A stretch of 64,000 nt of DNA from NCBI GenBank assembly GCA_044225365.1, contig JBGAIQ010000011.1, forward strand, positions 1 to 64,000, given 5' to 3'. The notes below the pieces were generated by a model. That model worked only from the letters and a program-made list of their open reading frames with translations. It was not told the DNA's origin and did no database searches. The stretch comes from Planctomycetota bacterium. Lineage in GTDB: Bacteria; Planctomycetota; B15-G4; JADJEK01. The first letter of the stretch is position 1. Each line of letters starts with the position of its first letter. Of this stretch, positions 21,891-30,024 are shown one piece after another. The position numbers and the translations under genes were made by a program.

Positions 21891-23240
21891 ATGACGTACA
21901 AGATCCTCATCTCCTCCATGCTCTGCGTACCGTTGCTCGCGCTCGTCTCGCACGCCGCGACCATCACGGTTTCACCCATCGGAGCGATCCAGACCGTCCA
22001 GTCCGGCATCGACGCGGCGAGCCCGGGCGACACGATCATCGTGAAGGCCGGCGTGTATCAGGAGAACCCGCGCATCCCCGGCGGCAAGACGGGCCTTCGC
22101 ATCGTCGCCGACGGAAACGTCACCATCGAGGCGCTCCCCGCAGGTGGAGCCGAGGCCGGTGCGGGAATCGTCGTCGACTCGCAAGACGTCACGCTCGAGG
22201 GCTTCTCGATTCGCAATGCGAGGTCCTCGGGAGGGAGCGATGAGACCGCGGATGGCAATGGTGTCGTGGCGCGCGCATCCGGTTTCATCGCTCGCAAGCT
22301 GACGCTGATCGGCAACGAGCGGCTCGGCATCTTCGTGAACGCGAGCGGCGCACGCATCGACGGTTGCAAATTCCGTGGTGGAGAGGTCGGCCTTCGATTC
22401 GAAGGGACGAGCAACGGCGTCGTGACCGGCTGCGACTTCCGCCTCGTCGGCGAATACGGGATGTTGTTCGCGAACATCTCCACGCTCGAGATCGATCACT
22501 CCACCTTCTTCGGTATCGAGGACGGCAATGGCATCTCGAGCGATGGCGGCGTCAACACGGGCGTCGCCGTTCACGACTGCACTTTTTCGACCGGTGACAA
22601 CGCAGGTCTCGACATCGATGCGACGAACGTGACGATCGAACGCAATACGATCTCGAACACTGGAGGAGGGATCGTCGTCCATGGCTCGACCATCGTCGTT
22701 CGCGACAATTCGATCTCGCTCGTCCCGAACAAGCCGGCGATCGATGTCAAAGCCACCTCGAACGTCACGATCGAGCGGAACACGATCCATGACTTCGCCG
22801 ACGAAGGCATCTTCCTGCGAAGCACGACGATCGGCGCCCTCGTCCAGGACAACAAGGTGAGCCAGGGACGGCGGCGCGAGAGCGCGGCGTTCCGGCTCGA
22901 CGGCAAGGACCACGTCGTCACCGGAAACACCGTGAAGGATGTCGCCGGCGACGGCTTCTTGATCGAGGGCGATACGTCGACGATCTCGAACAACAGCGTG
23001 AAGCGCGCGGGCCGCGACGGCTACGACATCGCGAACTCTGCCGTCCTGATCGTCCTCGATGCCAACACGGCGAGCGACTGCAGAGCGGAAGGAATCGATC
23101 ACACGGGCATCTTCGCCACGATCACGAACAACATCGTGAAGAACTGTCGGATCGACGTGGCCGCGATCGGATCGCTGAACGCTTTCACGAGCAACGTGTT
23201 CACGACCGGCGGAACGTCAACGCTGCCCGAGATCGACTGA
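21891..23240 (+). CDS. Secreted right-handed beta-helix protein, paralog of the upstream gene
   Basis: GAGGAG RBS, TVQSGIDAA.PGDTI.V.AGVY.E, shared C-terminus. Confidence 0.85.
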   Translation: MTYKILISSMLCVPLLALVSHAATITVSPIGAIQTVQSGIDAASPGDTIIVKAGVYQENPRIPGGKTGLRIVADGNVTIEALPAGGAEAGAGIVVDSQDVTLEGFSIRNARSSGGSDETADGNGVVARASGFIARKLTLIGNERLGIFVNASGARIDGCKFRGGEVGLRFEGTSNGVVTGCDFRLVGEYGMLFANISTLEIDHSTFFGIEDGNGISSDGGVNTGVAVHDCTFSTGDNAGLDIDATNVTIERNTISNTGGGIVVHGSTIVVRDNSISLVPNKPAIDVKATSNVTIERNTIHDFADEGIFLRSTTIGALVQDNKVSQGRRRESAAFRLDGKDHVVTGNTVKDVAGDGFLIEGDTSTISNNSVKRAGRDGYDIANSAVLIVLDANTASDCRAEGIDHTGIFATITNNIVKNCRIDVAAIGSLNAFTSNVFTTGGTSTLPEID

Positions 23241-24797
23241 GAGCGGCCGCTCTTCCTTCAAGCTCTCGCGATCGATCGGATACTGCGCGTCGCGCGATGC
23301 GAGGAGTTCGAGCATCGTTCCGCTCAGCGTCTTCACTCGCTCTTGCTGTTGCGCGGCGAGGTCGTGGTTCTCGCCAAGGTCGTGCGCGAGGTCGTACAGT
23401 TCGTACCGGCGCGGAACCGCGAGCCAGATCAACTTGAAGTCGCCGACTCGCAGCCAGGTGAACGGCTCGTAGCCCTTTCCTTTGGGACCCCAAACGTGCG
23501 GGTAGTGGACGAGCAGCGGGCGTTCGCGCCGGAACGCGAACTCCTCGGCATTTCCCTTCGCGGCGGGATCGAGGAGCGGGACGATGCTGTGTCCGTCGAC
23601 GACGTGCGACGCCGGCACGCTCGCGCCCGCAAGCTCGAGAATGGTCGGGAAGAGATCTTCGATGATCGTCGGCGCATCGCACACGAAGTCCCGCGCGACA
23701 TGGATTCGAGCCTGCAGGGGCTCGTCGTCCCCCGTCTTCGCGAACGCCACGATCTGCGGAATGCGCGTGCCGCCTTCGTAGGCGTTGCCCTTCCCCGCGC
23801 GCAGCGGGAAGTTGTAGGAATGGTCGGCATCGCCGAACGGAATCGATCCACGCGCTTCCGTCGCGAGACCGCCGTTGTCGGAGGCGAAGATCACGAGCGT
23901 TCGCTCGGCCACACGCAGCCGATCGAGCATGACGAGGACCGCGCCGAGACTGCGATCCACGCCCTCGATCATCGACGCGTAGCGCGCTTCCTTCTCGTCG
24001 AGGCCGGCCGCGCGGTACTTCTCGATGTAGGGAGCATGCGGTTCGAGAGGGACATGCACCGCGTAGTGCGCGAGGTAGAGGAAGAACGGCTTGCCGTCCT
24101 TCACCGCACCTTCGACGGCGCGATTCGCTTCGATCGTGAGCGCGTCCGTGAGGTGCACCGGCAGACCGTGATACGCCTCGAGCTCGGGAACGGCCCACAC
24201 CGGATTCGCCGCGCCATAGCCGTTCTCGCCTTGATAGCTGCCCGGTGCACCGGCGGCGTGACCCGCGATGCTGATGTCGAATCCGAGATTCTCCGGCGCT
24301 TCGCCGGGAGTCGAGCGCGCGCCGAAGTGCGCCTTGCCGACGTGGATCGTGCGATAGCCGGCGTCCCGAAGCGCTCCGGGCAACGTCACTCCACCTGGCT
24401 GCAATCCGTTGCGCTTCCAATCCGGGGGACTGAGGAGTCGCATGCCTTGCGCGGACGGATCCGCGTCCTTCTCGCGCGTCCACTGCGTCACATGATGGCG
24501 CGCCGCATTCTGTCCCGTGAGGAAGCTCGTGCGCGACGGACTGCACACCGGACAGGCGTAGGCCTGAGTGAAGCGGACTCCCGACTTCGCGAGACGTGCG
24601 ACGTTCGGCGTCGCGTACCGCGTGTTCTGCGGCATCGGCTCGCCCGCGAGGGGCACGGACGTATCGAGCCAACCGAGGTCGTCGACGAGGAAGACGACGA
24701 TGTTCGGTCGATCACTTGATTCCCTGACTACCATCGCGTCGCCCGAGCACGGGACGAGGAGCGCAAAGATCAACGCGAGATGAAGACGCACGCGCAT
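23217..24797 (-). CDS. Secreted Cys-type (formylglycine) sulfatase
   Basis: PNIVVFLVDDLG, CSPSR, GKAH, SDNGG, YEGG.R.P, ELYDL..D.GE. Confidence 0.95.
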   Translation of the reverse strand: MRVRLHLALIFALLVPCSGDAMVVRESSDRPNIVVFLVDDLGWLDTSVPLAGEPMPQNTRYATPNVARLAKSGVRFTQAYACPVCSPSRTSFLTGQNAARHHVTQWTREKDADPSAQGMRLLSPPDWKRNGLQPGGVTLPGALRDAGYRTIHVGKAHFGARSTPGEAPENLGFDISIAGHAAGAPGSYQGENGYGAANPVWAVPELEAYHGLPVHLTDALTIEANRAVEGAVKDGKPFFLYLAHYAVHVPLEPHAPYIEKYRAAGLDEKEARYASMIEGVDRSLGAVLVMLDRLRVAERTLVIFASDNGGLATEARGSIPFGDADHSYNFPLRAGKGNAYEGGTRIPQIVAFAKTGDDEPLQARIHVARDFVCDAPTIIEDLFPTILELAGASVPASHVVDGHSIVPLLDPAAKGNAEEFAFRRERPLLVHYPHVWGPKGKGYEPFTWLRVGDFKLIWLAVPRRYELYDLAHDLGENHDLAAQQQERVKTLSGTMLELLASRDAQYPIDRESLKEERPLSVDLGQR

Positions 24798-24886
24798 CGC
24801 GGTTCGCTCCTTGACGGCTCGGGGTGGGGACAGGATACGCTGCTGTCGTCGTTCGCGGCAGTCACCCCCTCCCACCGAGTTCGCCC

Positions 24887-26470
24887 ATGCAACTTCCCGT
24901 GAGAACGAATCACGTCGCGTCGATCTTCATTGCCTTCGTCTCCCTGGCGCACGCGCAATGGAATCCCAATTCGGGGCAATGGGGCAAGACCGACTCGCGC
25001 GACCTGCGCATCATGACGTGGAACGTACAGGACGGGTTGTGCTCGACGAATTCGAAGGTCAGCGGCGCGAACAACTGGTCCGCACTCGCTCGCATCGTCG
25101 CCGCGATGAAGCCCGACGTGCTCTTCCTCCAGGAATGCGCGGACAACAACGGGAATGGAACGGGATCGAACGTCGACTCCGTCAGCAACCTGACGACGAC
25201 GCTCAACATGTTCCTCCATGGCGGCAGCGACTCGTTCCACGGCGGGTCACCGATCACGTCGTACGTGCAGCTCTACGCGCCCGGTTTCGACTTGCCGTTC
25301 ATCTTCGTCTCGACGATCACCGACGGCTTCAATCGCAACGTGATCCTCTCGCGCTACCCGTTCAAGGACTTGAACGGGGACACGAAGACGCAGCTCTCCG
25401 ACGTCCCGAATCTCACGGCGGAGCTCTACTCCGTCGGCGGGAACGGCGGGATCCGCGGCTTCATGACCGCGGAGATCGATCTGCCGGATCTTCTCTACGC
25501 CGGCGATCTCGTCGCGGGAACGTGCCACCTGAAAGCCGGATCCGCGGCTTCCGATCAGACCGAGCGACTGAACGCCGCGAAGAACATCGCGTACTTCATC
25601 GACTACTTCTGGAACGGGGGCGGCACGAGCCTTCCCGATCCGCACGGCAAGATCGCGGACAGCCCGGCCGCGACCAAAGTCCTCTCGGGCGCGACGGCGT
25701 TCATCTGCGGCGGCGACTGGAACGAGGACGAGGCGACCGACGGTATCAAGGGCCCGCCGGATTGGATCACCAAGGCGGCGACTCTGGATCCCGCCGGCAC
25801 GGACGGCCCGGATCGCAATCGCACGGACATGACGTTCGACTCCGCGGTCGACGTCTTCACCGGCAACAAGGGCACGATCGGAACAGGCACGACGAAGTTC
25901 GACTACATCGCGTGGCAGGACTCACTCGTCACCGTGCGGCGCGCATTCCGCTTCGACTCGGCAAGCGTCACTCCCGCTCTTGCGATGCCGCCCGAGATCG
26001 TCGGATTCTCACCCAGCGCGTCGCAGGCGAGTTCGTTCGCCTCCGATCATCGGTGCGTCGTCGCCGACTTCATCCTCGTGCCGCCGATCGGTTGCAACAC
26101 CGCGGGCATCGACGAGGGCTTTGCCAAGCTCGGCGGCAATTCGAAGTACCCGACCTTCGCCGCGTGCGGCAGTCTCGGCACGGGCGGCACCGCCACGGTG
26201 ACGCTCACCAACGCGGCGCCGACGGCTGCGGCGTTCGCGTTCGTCTCCCTGCAAGCCGGTTGGACGATCACGCTCGGAGGAACGCTCGTGCCGCAGAACG
26301 CGTCGATCCTCGGCCCGTTCTTCACGGATGCCACGGGCGGACTCGCCATTCCGGGCGTACCCGGAGGCGGTGGCCCCGCGGTCGTTCACGTGCAGTGGCT
26401 GATCCACGACACGCTCGCGAGTCAGGGCTGGAGCCTCTCCAACGCCGTCGGTCTCTCGATCCTGCCGTGA
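24887..26470 (+). CDS. Secreted endonuclease/exonuclease/phosphatase (EEP) family protein with a conserved C-terminal domain
   Basis: MTWNV, DVLFLQE, ILSRYP, HLKA, GGDWN, FDYI, SDH. Confidence 0.85.
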   Translation: MQLPVRTNHVASIFIAFVSLAHAQWNPNSGQWGKTDSRDLRIMTWNVQDGLCSTNSKVSGANNWSALARIVAAMKPDVLFLQECADNNGNGTGSNVDSVSNLTTTLNMFLHGGSDSFHGGSPITSYVQLYAPGFDLPFIFVSTITDGFNRNVILSRYPFKDLNGDTKTQLSDVPNLTAELYSVGGNGGIRGFMTAEIDLPDLLYAGDLVAGTCHLKAGSAASDQTERLNAAKNIAYFIDYFWNGGGTSLPDPHGKIADSPAATKVLSGATAFICGGDWNEDEATDGIKGPPDWITKAATLDPAGTDGPDRNRTDMTFDSAVDVFTGNKGTIGTGTTKFDYIAWQDSLVTVRRAFRFDSASVTPALAMPPEIVGFSPSASQASSFASDHRCVVADFILVPPIGCNTAGIDEGFAKLGGNSKYPTFAACGSLGTGGTATVTLTNAAPTAAAFAFVSLQAGWTITLGGTLVPQNASILGPFFTDATGGLAIPGVPGGGGPAVVHVQWLIHDTLASQGWSLSNAVGLSILP

Positions 26471-26477
26471 TCGTTGA

Positions 26478-27065
26478 TCAGCGCGGCGCGTCGTCGATGA
26501 CGCTCGCGTGGATCCCGAAGCGCGAGTTCGGGAACTCTCGCGCGCAGCGTTCCCACGACGCCCGCATCGCGGCGAAGTCCTTGTTGCCCGCGATGAAGCC
26601 CGCCATGCCCTGCAGGTACAGCGCTTCGGGGACGACCGGCGCATCGGCGAAGTCGCGCAGCAGTTCGTCGCACAGCGCCTTCGAGCCGACGGCGTCGCCG
26701 CGCTGCCATGCGGCCTGCGCCCGCACGAACAACAATTCGGCGCGATACGCTCGCGGCGGCAGCCAACCCGTGTAACGCCGGATCTCGCGGCCCTTCTCGC
26801 TGAAGATGAACGTGGGTGCGAACGACACGCGCTGCCCCATGCTCGCTTCCTTCATGTCGGGATGTCTCGCGAGGAGATCGATCTTCAGCCCGACGAAGCT
26901 GGAACGGAGTGCGCTCTCGACCTCGGAGTCTGGATACGTCACGGTATCCATGCGACGGCAGCCCAGTCAGCCGGGCGCGTGCACGAAGGTCATCAGGATG
27001 CGATTCTCGGCCTCGGCCTTGGTGCGAGCGTCGGCGAGGGAAGAGAGGAAGAAGTCATCGAGCAT
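26478..27065 (-). CDS. Probable selenoprotein: thioredoxin-like (UxxC) domain plus TPR-like helical tail
   Basis: In-frame TGA at 26967-26969 joins two ORFs to read HAPG-U-LGCRRMDTVTYPD; cis-Pro loop FAPT; hairpin downstream of the TGA. Confidence 0.85.
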
Positions 27066-27142
27066 GATCGGTCTCGTTCGTTGCGTCCCCCGCACGATAC
27101 AAGAATCGGGGCCGCGGCACACGACCGTGCACGCATGGGCCG

Positions 27143-28606
27143 TCAGCGACCGCTCCCCGACGCCGTCGCCTTCCAATCCGGATGCACCTCCAGGAACAAG
27201 GTGTCCGCGCCGCGCGTGACGAAGAGTGAGATCGTCGCCGCATGCGCCGCGGCGGCCGTCGCGAGTTTGTTCGACAGGTCCGTCGCGTCCGCGACGGACG
27301 CACCGTCCACCTCGCGAACGATGTCGCCGACCCGCACGCCCGCGAGGCCCGCGAATCCCGTTCGCTTCACGATCGTTGCCCGCGCGCCCTTCGCGTCGCT
27401 CGGCAGATCGAGATCGGCACGATCCGAGTAGACGAGATCGCGCGCGGTGATACCGAATGCCGGACTCTCCGCCTTCTTCGCGTCGTTCACCTGAGCCGGC
27501 GCTGCGACGAGTTGCGCCTTCGCCACGTCTTCCGTCTCCCCGCGACGATACGAGAGTGCAATCACATCTCCCGGAGCATGAGCGCCGAGTTTGCTCGAGA
27601 GTTCGGTCTGATCGCCCTCGGCCTTGCAGTGCAAGGCTTCACCGTCGATCGCGAACAGGAGATCACCGCTGCGAAGGCCCGCGTTCGCTGCGGGCGAGTC
27701 CGGCATCACGCGCGTGAGGAGCACGCCCATTCGTGCTTGGGGTACGCCCAGCGCCGCCGCGAGTTCCGGAAGGAGGACCTGCGACTCGATGCCGAGCCAC
27801 CCGCGCACGCTCGCCACGGGTTCCTTGGTGGATTGCGTTGCATTCTCCGGCGGCTGCGCGACGAGACTCGCAAAGCGCGAGGCGGGCACGACGACGATCT
27901 CGTCGCCGTTGTTGTCGTAGCCCTGGATGTCGGCGAGCAGGTCGAGCGACCGCTCACCGGTGACGGGGTCGGACTTCGGAGTGCGCGCGAGCAGCGACAG
28001 GTGATTCACGATGCCGACGATGCGTCCGTCGAACGCGACGACCGGAGCGCCGAGATAGTCGGAGATCGCATACGTCGTGACGTAGCACTTGGGATCCGCA
28101 ATGGCGGCGCTCACCATGAATGCATCGATGTACGGGGCGGAGCGGAAGCTCGGACCCGCGAGACGCAAGGTCGCGAAGAAGTCGCCGACGTCGAGAGCGT
28201 CGTTCTTCGCGAACTCGATCGGCGCGATCTCGAAACCGTCGTCCGCGAGCGACAAGAACGCGAGGCTCGTCGCCGCGTCCATTCCGCGAAGTTTGGCGTC
28301 GAACGTCTTCCCGCCCGCGATCGTGACTCGAATCGAAGTGATTCGCGAGCCGAGCGCCGCGCTCTCCTTGAACAGATCCGAGGGCGTCATCACGAGCCGC
28401 TTCTGAACGACCACTCCGATGCCATGGCTCTCGAGGTCGACGTCGACACCGTTGTCGAGTTGCTTGCGAACGACCGAATCGACTCGAACGACCGACGGAC
28501 CCACCTTCTGATGGATCGTCCGCAGTTGGCTCGAGTCGCTCGTCTGCGCCCCTGCGAGGTGTGAGAACGCGAGGACGAATGCGGTGGTCAGGATCCGAAG
28601 TCTCAT
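27143..28606 (-). CDS. HtrA-like protein with two PDZ domains, apparently non-catalytic
   Basis: PSVVRV, GIGVVV, G.PV...DGRIVGI, GWLGI PDZ; lacks the TNxH and GNSGG motifs. Confidence 0.8.
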   Translation of the reverse strand: MRLRILTTAFVLAFSHLAGAQTSDSSQLRTIHQKVGPSVVRVDSVVRKQLDNGVDVDLESHGIGVVVQKRLVMTPSDLFKESAALGSRITSIRVTIAGGKTFDAKLRGMDAATSLAFLSLADDGFEIAPIEFAKNDALDVGDFFATLRLAGPSFRSAPYIDAFMVSAAIADPKCYVTTYAISDYLGAPVVAFDGRIVGIVNHLSLLARTPKSDPVTGERSLDLLADIQGYDNNGDEIVVVPASRFASLVAQPPENATQSTKEPVASVRGWLGIESQVLLPELAAALGVPQARMGVLLTRVMPDSPAANAGLRSGDLLFAIDGEALHCKAEGDQTELSSKLGAHAPGDVIALSYRRGETEDVAKAQLVAAPAQVNDAKKAESPAFGITARDLVYSDRADLDLPSDAKGARATIVKRTGFAGLAGVRVGDIVREVDGASVADATDLSNKLATAAAAHAATISLFVTRGADTLFLEVHPDWKATASGSGR

Positions 28607-30024
28607 CGCTCACCTCCGCCACCCGTCGCGGGCGAGCTCGTCTTCTCCGACTCGGGGCGCAGCGCGATCCGCCATTCCGCACGCCCGCGAGCCACCTTGA
28701 GGACGACGGGAAGCCCCGATTCCGCCGCCGCGGCGAGTGCCGCGCGCAGACCCGCGGAGCTCTCGAGCGGCGTGTCGTCGACCGCGAGGAGCACGTCGCC
28801 CACCTTGAGCTTCGGCGTCGTGCGGTCGAGCGCGCCGCCGGGCCGCGCTCCGGTGAGCAGCAGCGCGGCATTGCACTTCAAGAAGCGCCGTCGCGTCTCG
28901 TCGGGCGCGAGCGGTCGCACCGTCAGGCCCAGCTCCGGAAGTTCCTCGTCCTCCTCGGCCGGCATCTTCCATTCGACCGTCGCGAGCTTCAGCGTCTCTT
29001 GTTCCGTACCGCGCGCAATTCGCACTTCGACCTCCGCGCCGATCGGGAGCGAGGTGAGCACTCGCAGGGCTTCGGGAATGTCCTCGTCGAAATGGACGTC
29101 GAGCACGTCGGCTCCGAACGCGAGCAAGCGATCACCCGGTCGCAGGCCTGCTTTCGCTGCCGGCGAACCCGGTTCGACCGATGCGATGACGGCGCCCTTC
29201 TCCTTCTCCTTCGACGGCGGAAGCGCCTGGATCGAGATGCCGATCTCCGAGCGGTCGATTCGGCCGTTCTTGCTCGCGAGCAGGCGATCGACCACTTCGC
29301 GGACGACTCGCGCCGGGATCGCGAATCCGAGATTGTCGGCTTTGTCGAATCCGCGCGCGTTGATGCCCACGATGCGTCCGGAGAGATCGACGAGCGGGCC
29401 TCCGCTGTTGCCGGGATTGATGGCCGCGTCGGTCTGGATCCAGGTGTTGAAGAGGCCGGTCGGCGAGCCTCCGTGGAGCGCGAGTTCGCCGAGGAAGCGC
29501 TGCGAGCACGACACGACGCCGAACGAAAGCGAGCGAGTGAGGCCAAGGGGCGAGCCCATCGCGATCACGAAGTCGCCCTCGATCGGGAGAGCTTCGTTGA
29601 ACTCCGCGGAGACCACGTGATCGAGTCCCAGCTCCGAGATCTCGAGTTGGATCAGCGTGAGGTCGGTCGGCGCGTCGGTTCCCACGAGGCGCGCGTTGCA
29701 CTTCCTCCGATCGGAGAGCGTGCAGATCATCCGCTTCGCCGTACCCGCGACGTGGAAGTTCGTGATGACGAGTCCGTCGGGACGAATGATCGCGCCGCTC
29801 CCCGTCGCCATCGATTCGATCTTGCGTCCGTTCAGACTGTAGTCGAACACCGGTTGGATGTTGACGAGCGTCGGGAAGACCTTGACGCGAGCCTGCGCGA
29901 TCGCGTCTTGCAGCGAAACGGCAGCGCTCTGCGCGCGCGCACTCGCGCCGGGCAAGGCGGCGATCGCGGCGACGAAGAACCCGAACGGAATGTGTCGCGC
30001 CGAAGTGAAATCGTGATGGAGCAT
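28603..30024 (-). CDS. HtrA/DegP-like serine protease with PDZ domains
   Basis: GSG.II, TNFHV, D..TDL, IQTDAAINPGNSGGPL. Confidence 0.92.
   Translation of the reverse strand: MLHHDFTSARHIPFGFFVAAIAALPGASARAQSAAVSLQDAIAQARVKVFPTLVNIQPVFDYSLNGRKIESMATGSGAIIRPDGLVITNFHVAGTAKRMICTLSDRRKCNARLVGTDAPTDLTLIQLEISELGLDHVVSAEFNEALPIEGDFVIAMGSPLGLTRSLSFGVVSCSQRFLGELALHGGSPTGLFNTWIQTDAAINPGNSGGPLVDLSGRIVGINARGFDKADNLGFAIPARVVREVVDRLLASKNGRIDRSEIGISIQALPPSKEKEKGAVIASVEPGSPAAKAGLRPGDRLLAFGADVLDVHFDEDIPEALRVLTSLPIGAEVEVRIARGTEQETLKLATVEWKMPAEEDEELPELGLTVRPLAPDETRRRFLKCNAALLLTGARPGGALDRTTPKLKVGDVLLAVDDTPLESSAGLRAALAAAAESGLPVVLKVARGRAEWRIALRPESEKTSSPATGGGGER

Follow-up and report, generated by a model that had tools for sequence, protein, structure and literature searches.

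A planctomycete gene with a conserved in-frame UGA predicted to encode a thioredoxin- and TPR-like selenoprotein related to a family described in Geobacter

In CxxC motifs, the nucleophilic Cys is a classic site for selenocysteine (Sec), and a selenoprotein known as "thiol:disulfide interchange protein" was reportedly first described by Kryukov and Gladyshev in 2004. The sections of later work that concern this family describe it by the Pfam domain PF13098, a UxxC motif, and the representative WP_011366075.1 (PMC13188914, PMC9312934), and the corresponding part of Zhang et al. (2006) lists it for Geobacter metallireducens, G. uraniumreducens, and Syntrophus aciditrophicus (PMC1794560). Another selenoprotein, TsoB, is given the motif UxxxxU where it is treated in PMC13188914. 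Thioredoxin (Trx) and TPR domains occur together in the chaperedoxin CnoX/YbbN, to which the relevant sections of three papers attribute a holdase and a redox-protective function (PMC10998233, PMC6282202, PMC8129009).

Here, we analyze a 64,000-nucleotide stretch of the contig JBGAIQ010000011.1 of a Planctomycetota bacterium, referred to as the window, which very likely encodes a 195-residue, two-domain selenoprotein in which UGA-33 would be decoded as Sec by means of SelB and a downstream hairpin. The frame running from the ATG at 27065 on the minus strand translates as MLDDFFLSSLADARTKAEAENRILMTFVHAPG-U-LGCRRMDTVTYPD..., with the codons around the TGA (GCG CCC GGC TGA CTG GGC TGC CGT CGC ATG GAT ACC) read as APG-U-LGC-RRMDT, and read-through joins a 32-codon piece to a 157-aa ORF (26478..26951, from M39) to give 195 aa. 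Solely the 157-aa piece appears in the standard ORF list. The ATG at 27065 is the predicted start codon, and in the alignment the N-terminus of the protein lines up with the starts of its orthologs. An initial annotation of this DNA had proposed that the APG-U-LGC frame unites two fragments into a 195-aa protein and that a perfect 7-bp stem lies 16 nt past the TGA; the sequence is as it described, and its positions are exact. The features of the gene are as follows.

26478..27065, minus strand: full coding sequence of the predicted selenoprotein, 195 codons plus TGA stop, ATG start at 27065
26478-26480, minus strand: genuine stop codon TGA
26967..26969, minus strand: in-frame TGA, codon 33, predicted to specify selenocysteine (U33) at the head of the redox motif U-L-G-C
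26958..26960, minus strand: TGC codon of Cys36, predicted from column conservation to be the resolving cysteine of UxxC
26951..26966, minus strand: 16-nt spacer from the UGA to the hairpin, identical in length and ungapped in 30 of 30 aligned loci
26931..26950, minus strand: putative SECIS hairpin of the bacterial type, in which a 7-bp stem (UGGAUAC/GUAUCCA) closes the loop CGUGAC, within codons M39-D-T-V-T-Y-P45
26950-26944, minus strand: 5' stem of the hairpin, UGGAUAC
26943-26938, minus strand: loop of the hairpin, CGUGAC
26937-26931, minus strand: 3' stem of the hairpin, GUAUCCA
26757..27065, minus strand: predicted thioredoxin-fold domain, residues 1-103, DsbD-gamma/Thioredoxin_7-like (Pfam, AF2, VIA, PDB profile)
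26814-26816, minus strand: codon of the conserved, cis-Pro-type P84
26490..26756, minus strand: predicted C-terminal five-helix TPR-like domain, residues 104-192 (AF2, VIA, PDB profile)

The in-frame UGA is conserved across a wide range of relatives. A six-frame search of 401 genomes of the same phylum, with stops read through, returned an in-frame TGA in each of the best 56 rows (E <= 5.6e-14), the first TGA-free row being a partial match to residues 5-116. Among the 64 rows listed that span the query from residue 20 or earlier to residue 160 or later, 63 contained the TGA and the one without it was a weak match of 29 bits. In the relatives whose loci we fetched, independently assembled and sharing from 54% down to 26% identity with the window protein, the TGA occupied one and the same codon position at all 30 loci and neither TGC nor TGT was present there, although the initial annotation had raised either triplet in relatives as a sign of a sequencing error or pseudogene. 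The UGA was embedded in the motif [AS]-[PE]-G-U-L-G-C at 21 of these loci and in P-[QEGDT]-U-[GT]-[GA]-C at the other 9. Upstream of it, W6, A13, and P31 are each at least 90% conserved among 27 aligned read-through sequences, indicating that the approximately 30 residues preceding the UGA are coding, and the C36 column is invariant in the same alignment and at least 90% conserved in an alignment of full-length homologs. Beyond the phylum, 59 family matches were found in 151 Geobacterales genomes, 38 with one TGA and 21 without.

As a single sequence, the 76-nt region containing the hairpin folds no better than expected (z = 0.34; folds of equal or better quality arise in 128 of 200 shuffles), and in a GC-rich sequence such a fold is worthless as evidence alone. 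The comparative evidence goes far past what chance would give. The 63-nt stretch around the TGA aligns without gaps across the 30 loci, and pairing of helix columns 25-32 with 39-46 was found in 86.3% of cells, compared to 12-40% when the 3' partner was slid by 1-3 columns. Double-sided compensatory changes were present in 4 pairs and 13 cells, and the covariation score was reached by 0 of 500 shuffles. One example is a change from GAU to GGU (Asp to Gly) matched by a synonymous change from UAU to UAC, and pairing is likewise restored by each of two nonsynonymous changes, Tyr to Cys (locus L035) and Tyr to His (locus L043). Loci L028-L030 encode a very different peptide at the hairpin site; a same-register minimum free energy (MFE) stem is kept in L028 and L030, and pairing in L029 was obtained only by hand. 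Overall, inspection by eye found the same-register hairpin in 28 of the 30 MFE folds. The loop bases of the hairpin are at least 90% conserved, as are the third positions of its codons for Val (GUG) and Thr (ACG). The overlapping peptide motif M-x-x-V-T-Y/F-P-D is conserved in Cys forms of the protein too, and some of the conservation at the nucleotide level is thus owed to the protein sequence. At the same register, 7 of 10 Geobacterales Sec-form genes had 6-7 of the 7 stem pairs and 3 had a bulged variant hairpin, whereas 11 Cys-form genes from Geomonas and Citrifermentans had just 2-4 of 7. A search of Rfam at E <= 10 over 26700-27150 returned no bacterial SECIS model and one chance snoRNA match of 13.4 bits. 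With its spacing from the UGA and a G/U in its loop, the hairpin conforms to the bacterial SECIS pattern, and the 3' SECIS element postulated in the initial annotation is thus borne out as a conserved, covarying hairpin at SECIS distance.

The genome of the window (6.53 Mb in 103 contigs, 94% complete) contains the machinery for Sec insertion, as the initial annotation had suggested checking: selA (486.6 bits), which adjoins selD (361.5 bits), selB (346.5 bits), and one tRNA-Sec (68.5 bits) with anticodon TCA according to ARAGORN, with all matches above curated cut-offs. On contig C90, selA occupies 85984-87345 and selD lies directly downstream at 87455-88375. The selD gene has one in-frame TGA of its own, which suggests that the selenophosphate synthetase of this genome is probably a selenoprotein too. 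A second tRNA-Sec candidate on contig C103 (47.5 bits) was identified by ARAGORN as tRNA-Ser(TGA) and rejected.

Homologs with a standard amino acid in place of Sec were retrieved by searching 1.84 billion representative proteins with a profile of the 27 read-through proteins, which yielded 295 proteins at E <= 1e-30. Inspected by eye, 57 of the 150 matches listed were shortened forms starting just past the U column. The remainder consisted mostly of full-length proteins in a single stretch (about 186-222 aa), with multi-repeat TPR or multi-domain Trx proteins making up the rest. Several tandem Trx domains of the family type occur in some matches (P0056, P0060, P0073, and similar), with three WCxWC repeats in the 379-aa P0056, and other matches are very long TPR arrays that align with the C-terminal domain alone. 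In 30 aligned full-length homologs, the U column held Cys in 28 and Ser in 2, so that Cys homologs aligned at the TGA, another proposed check, do exist; the second Cys of the motif was replaced by Ser in 2 of the 30. Exchange of Cys and Sec at what appears to be the nucleophilic position of CxxC is the classic signature. The full-length homologs bear names such as "thioredoxin family protein," "DUF255 domain-containing protein," and "thioredoxin fold domain-containing protein," an example of the Cys form being WP_135869447.1 from Geomonas terrae.

Database records of Sec forms are truncated almost without exception. None of 54 relatives of the window protein retrieved by a word-index search covers more than 81% of the query. 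In 52 of these records, the annotated start is the Met following the TGA (P0004 and P0054 differ), and nearly all of the 54 are 156-163 aa in length and begin with "MDTVTYPD." Likewise, all 120 listed of at least 120 Geobacter-form relatives lack the N-terminal part, and nearly all start at the post-UGA Met. Such records are labeled "hypothetical protein" or "tetratricopeptide repeat protein," and because they start past the UGA, the active site is missing from them. An NCBIfam scan found no dedicated model and returned weak matches to TsoB and DsbD far under their cut-offs. The annotation error therefore spans the whole family, in keeping with the earlier suggestion that gene callers split this selenoprotein.

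Both domains named in the initial annotation, one thioredoxin-like and one TPR-like, can be recognized in the protein. Its best Pfam match is PF13098 (Thioredoxin_2; 35.8 bits against a cut-off of 27 bits), and PF13899 (Thioredoxin_7; 31.4 bits) is also above its cut-off, while with the single window sequence the Pfam TPR matches were all under theirs. An AlphaFold2 (AF2) model built from the 27-sequence alignment (pLDDT 97.3, pTM 0.92) predicts a thioredoxin fold for residues 1-103, with a CxxC-type motif, U-L-G-C (33-36), at the N-terminus of helix 1, here the start of helix 34-43. In VIA comparisons, this domain matched 3f9u with a Z of 13.6. Both the read-through and the full-length-homolog alignments show no variation at P84, which belongs to the loop "W-[AT]-P-T" and is presumably placed where Trx-fold enzymes carry their cis-proline. 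The C-terminal TPR-like domain is modeled as helices 104-121, 125-138, 145-159, 164-177, and 182-192, with a TPR geometry comparable to that of the designed TPR 1na3 (VIA Z 11.4, rmsd 1.9 over 82 residues). No signal peptide was visible by eye in the window protein, and it is probably cytoplasmic. Three Sec-form members (L041, L047, and L049) have a hydrophobic N-terminal extension that by eye resembles a signal peptide and is absent from the window protein and its close relatives, suggesting that the family may include both exported and cytoplasmic versions.

A quick IQ-TREE phylogeny of 80 rows (SH-aLRT support only, midpoint root, with L081 and P0082 excluded) placed the window protein within a clade of 21 Sec forms with a support of 99, and the Sec and Cys labels on this tree require at least 7 changes. 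The Cys forms of Geomonas and Citrifermentans (L070-L080) formed a single clade (support 94) nested in the Sec forms of Geobacterales, which suggests a replacement of Sec by Cys in this group and is consistent with the decay of the hairpin there. Other Geobacterales copies (L094-L103) use Sec and have kept the hairpin. A search for related loci from the single protein P0082 returned only Geomonas-type relatives and one metagenome-assembled genome of the Acidobacteriota, in which the match (L081:1480-2060) is a Sec form with the motif APSU-PGC; Sec forms thus reach a third phylum.

The neighborhood of the gene in the window comprises the following features.

27143-28606, minus strand: HtrA/DegP-like gene with Trypsin_2 and PDZ, upstream of the selenoprotein gene
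28603-30024, minus strand: HtrA/DegP-like gene with Trypsin_2 and PDZ, upstream of the selenoprotein gene
23217-24875, minus strand: sulfatase (PF00884, E 1.9e-44), downstream of the selenoprotein gene
24824-26470, plus strand: 548-aa protein with a weak Exo_endo_phos match, downstream of the selenoprotein gene

The tandem HtrA-like genes overlap by 4 nt and share the strand of the selenoprotein gene, from which 77 nt separate them, and both have apparent signal-like segments at their N-termini, as judged by eye. ORFs at 20 homologous loci and in the window (84 proteins) were compared to Pfam, and no conserved gene partner was found across the 20 loci: the tandem HtrA-like pair was not seen at any of them, nor did the Exo_endo_phos-like or sulfatase genes recur. 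Among loci of the family f51, an isoleucyl-tRNA synthetase (4 loci) and a histone-deacetylase-family protein (2 loci) were recurrent neighbors, which we take as synteny of close relatives. Redox genes occur sporadically near the family, namely an MsrA-MsrB fusion (L051:4843-6117), a glutathione peroxidase (L052:4935-5495), and a glutaredoxin-domain protein (L067:5023-5694). Since the neighborhood is not conserved across the 20 loci, it offers no functional clue, and the selenoprotein gene looks like one that stands alone.

We propose that SelB, together with Sec-tRNA(Sec), would bind the stem-loop that begins 16 nt past the UGA, and that the ribosome would read UGA-33 as selenocysteine with no termination. 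In the resulting protein, U33-L-G-C36 would mark the N-terminus of helix 1 of a thioredoxin fold resembling DsbD-gamma, and a TPR domain of the CpoB/YbgF type would follow. Judged from fold and motif only, its function is most likely that of a thiol-disulfide oxidoreductase, in whose cycle Sec33 would attack a substrate disulfide or an oxidized cysteine and Cys36 would resolve the mixed selenylsulfide, with the TPR domain most likely holding a protein partner or client.

Other readings of the locus need to be weighed against Sec insertion. The TGA could have arisen in an ordinary CxxC thioredoxin-like gene through faulty sequencing or assembly, or through a recent nonsense mutation that left a pseudogene. 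It is true that this codon is TGC or TGT in homologs of the Cys form and that the single-sequence fold of the hairpin region is nonsignificant. However, the same TGA is present in all 30 independently assembled loci, despite identities of 26% to 54%, and in 38 of the 59 Geobacterales matches, the frame upstream of it is conserved as protein, and the hairpin covaries; the conservation of the UGA effectively refutes such an origin, to which we assign a negligible probability. If translation instead stopped at the UGA or started at M39, the functional product would be a 157-aa protein without the redox motif, as is annotated for 52 of 54 relatives and for nearly all of the 120 listed Geobacter-form relatives, but shortened annotations are to be expected from any gene caller that respects stops. 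Judged by the AF2 model, a protein beginning at M39 would be deprived of the active-site motif of the Trx fold and also of its strand 1 and helix 0. The 32 codons ahead of the UGA show in-frame conservation, and the Cys-form homologs are each a single full-length protein of approximately 190 aa, all of which makes this reading highly improbable.

A further possibility is that the UGA is read through without Sec-tRNA, by near-cognate insertion of Trp or Cys, with the hairpin a mere stimulator. UGA-C is a leaky context and is found in all 21 genes of the clade to which the window protein belongs, yet UGA-G and UGA-A contexts occur in other clades and the genome encodes the full Sec machinery. 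The position is moreover that of the nucleophilic Cys of CxxC, and the spacing of the hairpin and the G/U in its loop match the bacterial SECIS pattern. Read-through of this kind is consequently very unlikely in our view. Sec insertion at UGA-33 remains the reading that we favor by far, and the proposal of a genuine selenoprotein in the initial annotation is upheld by the Sec genes, the conserved UGA, the covarying hairpin, and the Cys homologs.

Among proteins of known structure, the closest solved relative of residues 1 to approximately 120 is DsbD-gamma (1vrs, 2fwe, and 1uc7; profile E 3.6e-15), with 1vrs_D superposing at a VIA Z of 13.1 and an rmsd of 2.4 over 108 residues at 26% identity, a Foldseek E of 3.4e-6, and a CxxC-type motif at the matching place. 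DsbD-gamma relies on Cys and belongs, as a periplasmic domain, to a membrane electron transporter, whereas the window protein is predicted to be small and soluble, to use Sec, and to have an additional TPR domain. For residues approximately 110-190, the closest solved relative is the TPR domain of CpoB/YbgF (2xev and 6g5s; profile E 3.6e-11; VIA Z 12.3 for 2xev), and some database copies of the family are labeled "TolA-binding protein"; in contrast to the window protein, YbgF, a Tol-Pal protein of the periplasm, lacks a Trx domain and has a coiled coil as its N-terminal domain. TsoB (NF045694), a rhodanese/DsbD-fusion-like selenoprotein, is the best NCBIfam match, with residues 16-104 aligned to the DsbD-like C-terminus of the model, but membership was rejected, as the match scored 26.5 bits against a cut-off of 805 bits and both architecture and motif differ.

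The family might also be a selenium-dependent functional analogue of CnoX, in which the TPR domain would capture clients and Sec33 would form a reversible selenylsulfide with their oxidized cysteines. This idea derives from the shared domain order, Trx and then TPR, and from a poorly superposed top Foldseek match to YbbN (3qou from E. coli, E 1.2e-6), and from nothing more, and we think it unlikely to be correct. The Foldseek alignments do cover both domains (196 columns for 3qou and 205 for 3qdn_A), but an rmsd of 11.7 and a TM of 0.38 indicate that the domains are arranged differently, the window protein is approximately 90 residues shorter, and YbbN was not among the best 60 of 85 PDB sequence-profile matches. 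Membership in CnoX itself was rejected, with PF00085 at 14.1 bits against a cut-off of 23.5 bits and no match to TPR_19 or TPR_20, leaving a shared architecture only. Were the analogy to hold, Sec might have been retained since it is hard to over-oxidize irreversibly, and the repeated switching between Sec and Cys might track the ecology of oxidative stress.

Compared to the published thiol:disulfide interchange selenoprotein, the protein that we predict here has the same best Pfam match, PF13098, and a motif of the same UxxC type (U-L-G-C). The comparison runs through Geobacterales, where 10 Sec forms read NPGU-IGC-KQMDAVTYP (NPNU-IGC in 2 of the 10) and have the TGA codon and the hairpin in the same place as the window gene. 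The copy in one Geobacterales genome, G428, is identical at 152 of 152 positions to a record named G. metallireducens RCH3, and in that genome it is the only above-cut-off PF13098 match that contains a TGA. G428 has a further thioredoxin-like PF13098 match with an in-frame TGA and a score of 24.1 bits, below the cut-off (G428:C1:182559-182801), which is presumably another of the Trx-like selenoproteins listed for that organism. By this chain of sequence matches, the published "thiol:disulfide interchange protein" and the Geobacterales form are very probably one and the same, and the window gene is in turn likely to be a distant member of that family, an assignment that goes through the G428 copy. 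The selenoprotein family is thus very probably not new, having already been predicted computationally in other bacteria, and our understanding of selenocysteine decoding is unchanged by a finding that will not surprise the specialist. Nevertheless, the window protein shares merely 24-28% identity with the wider family sampled, belongs to a different phylum, and falls in a separate clade, made up of 21 Sec forms with the motif PGU-LGC (APGU-LGC in the window). The gene would therefore extend the Geobacter-type selenoprotein to a second large phylum, Planctomycetota, document its Trx and TPR architecture, and provide a clean natural set for the comparison of Sec and Cys. The seed for a model of the family could be taken from a SECIS in fixed register and the pattern [P]-x-U-x-G-C followed by M/L-x-x-V-T-Y-P, with Sec forms in at least 3 phyla and Cys forms elsewhere.
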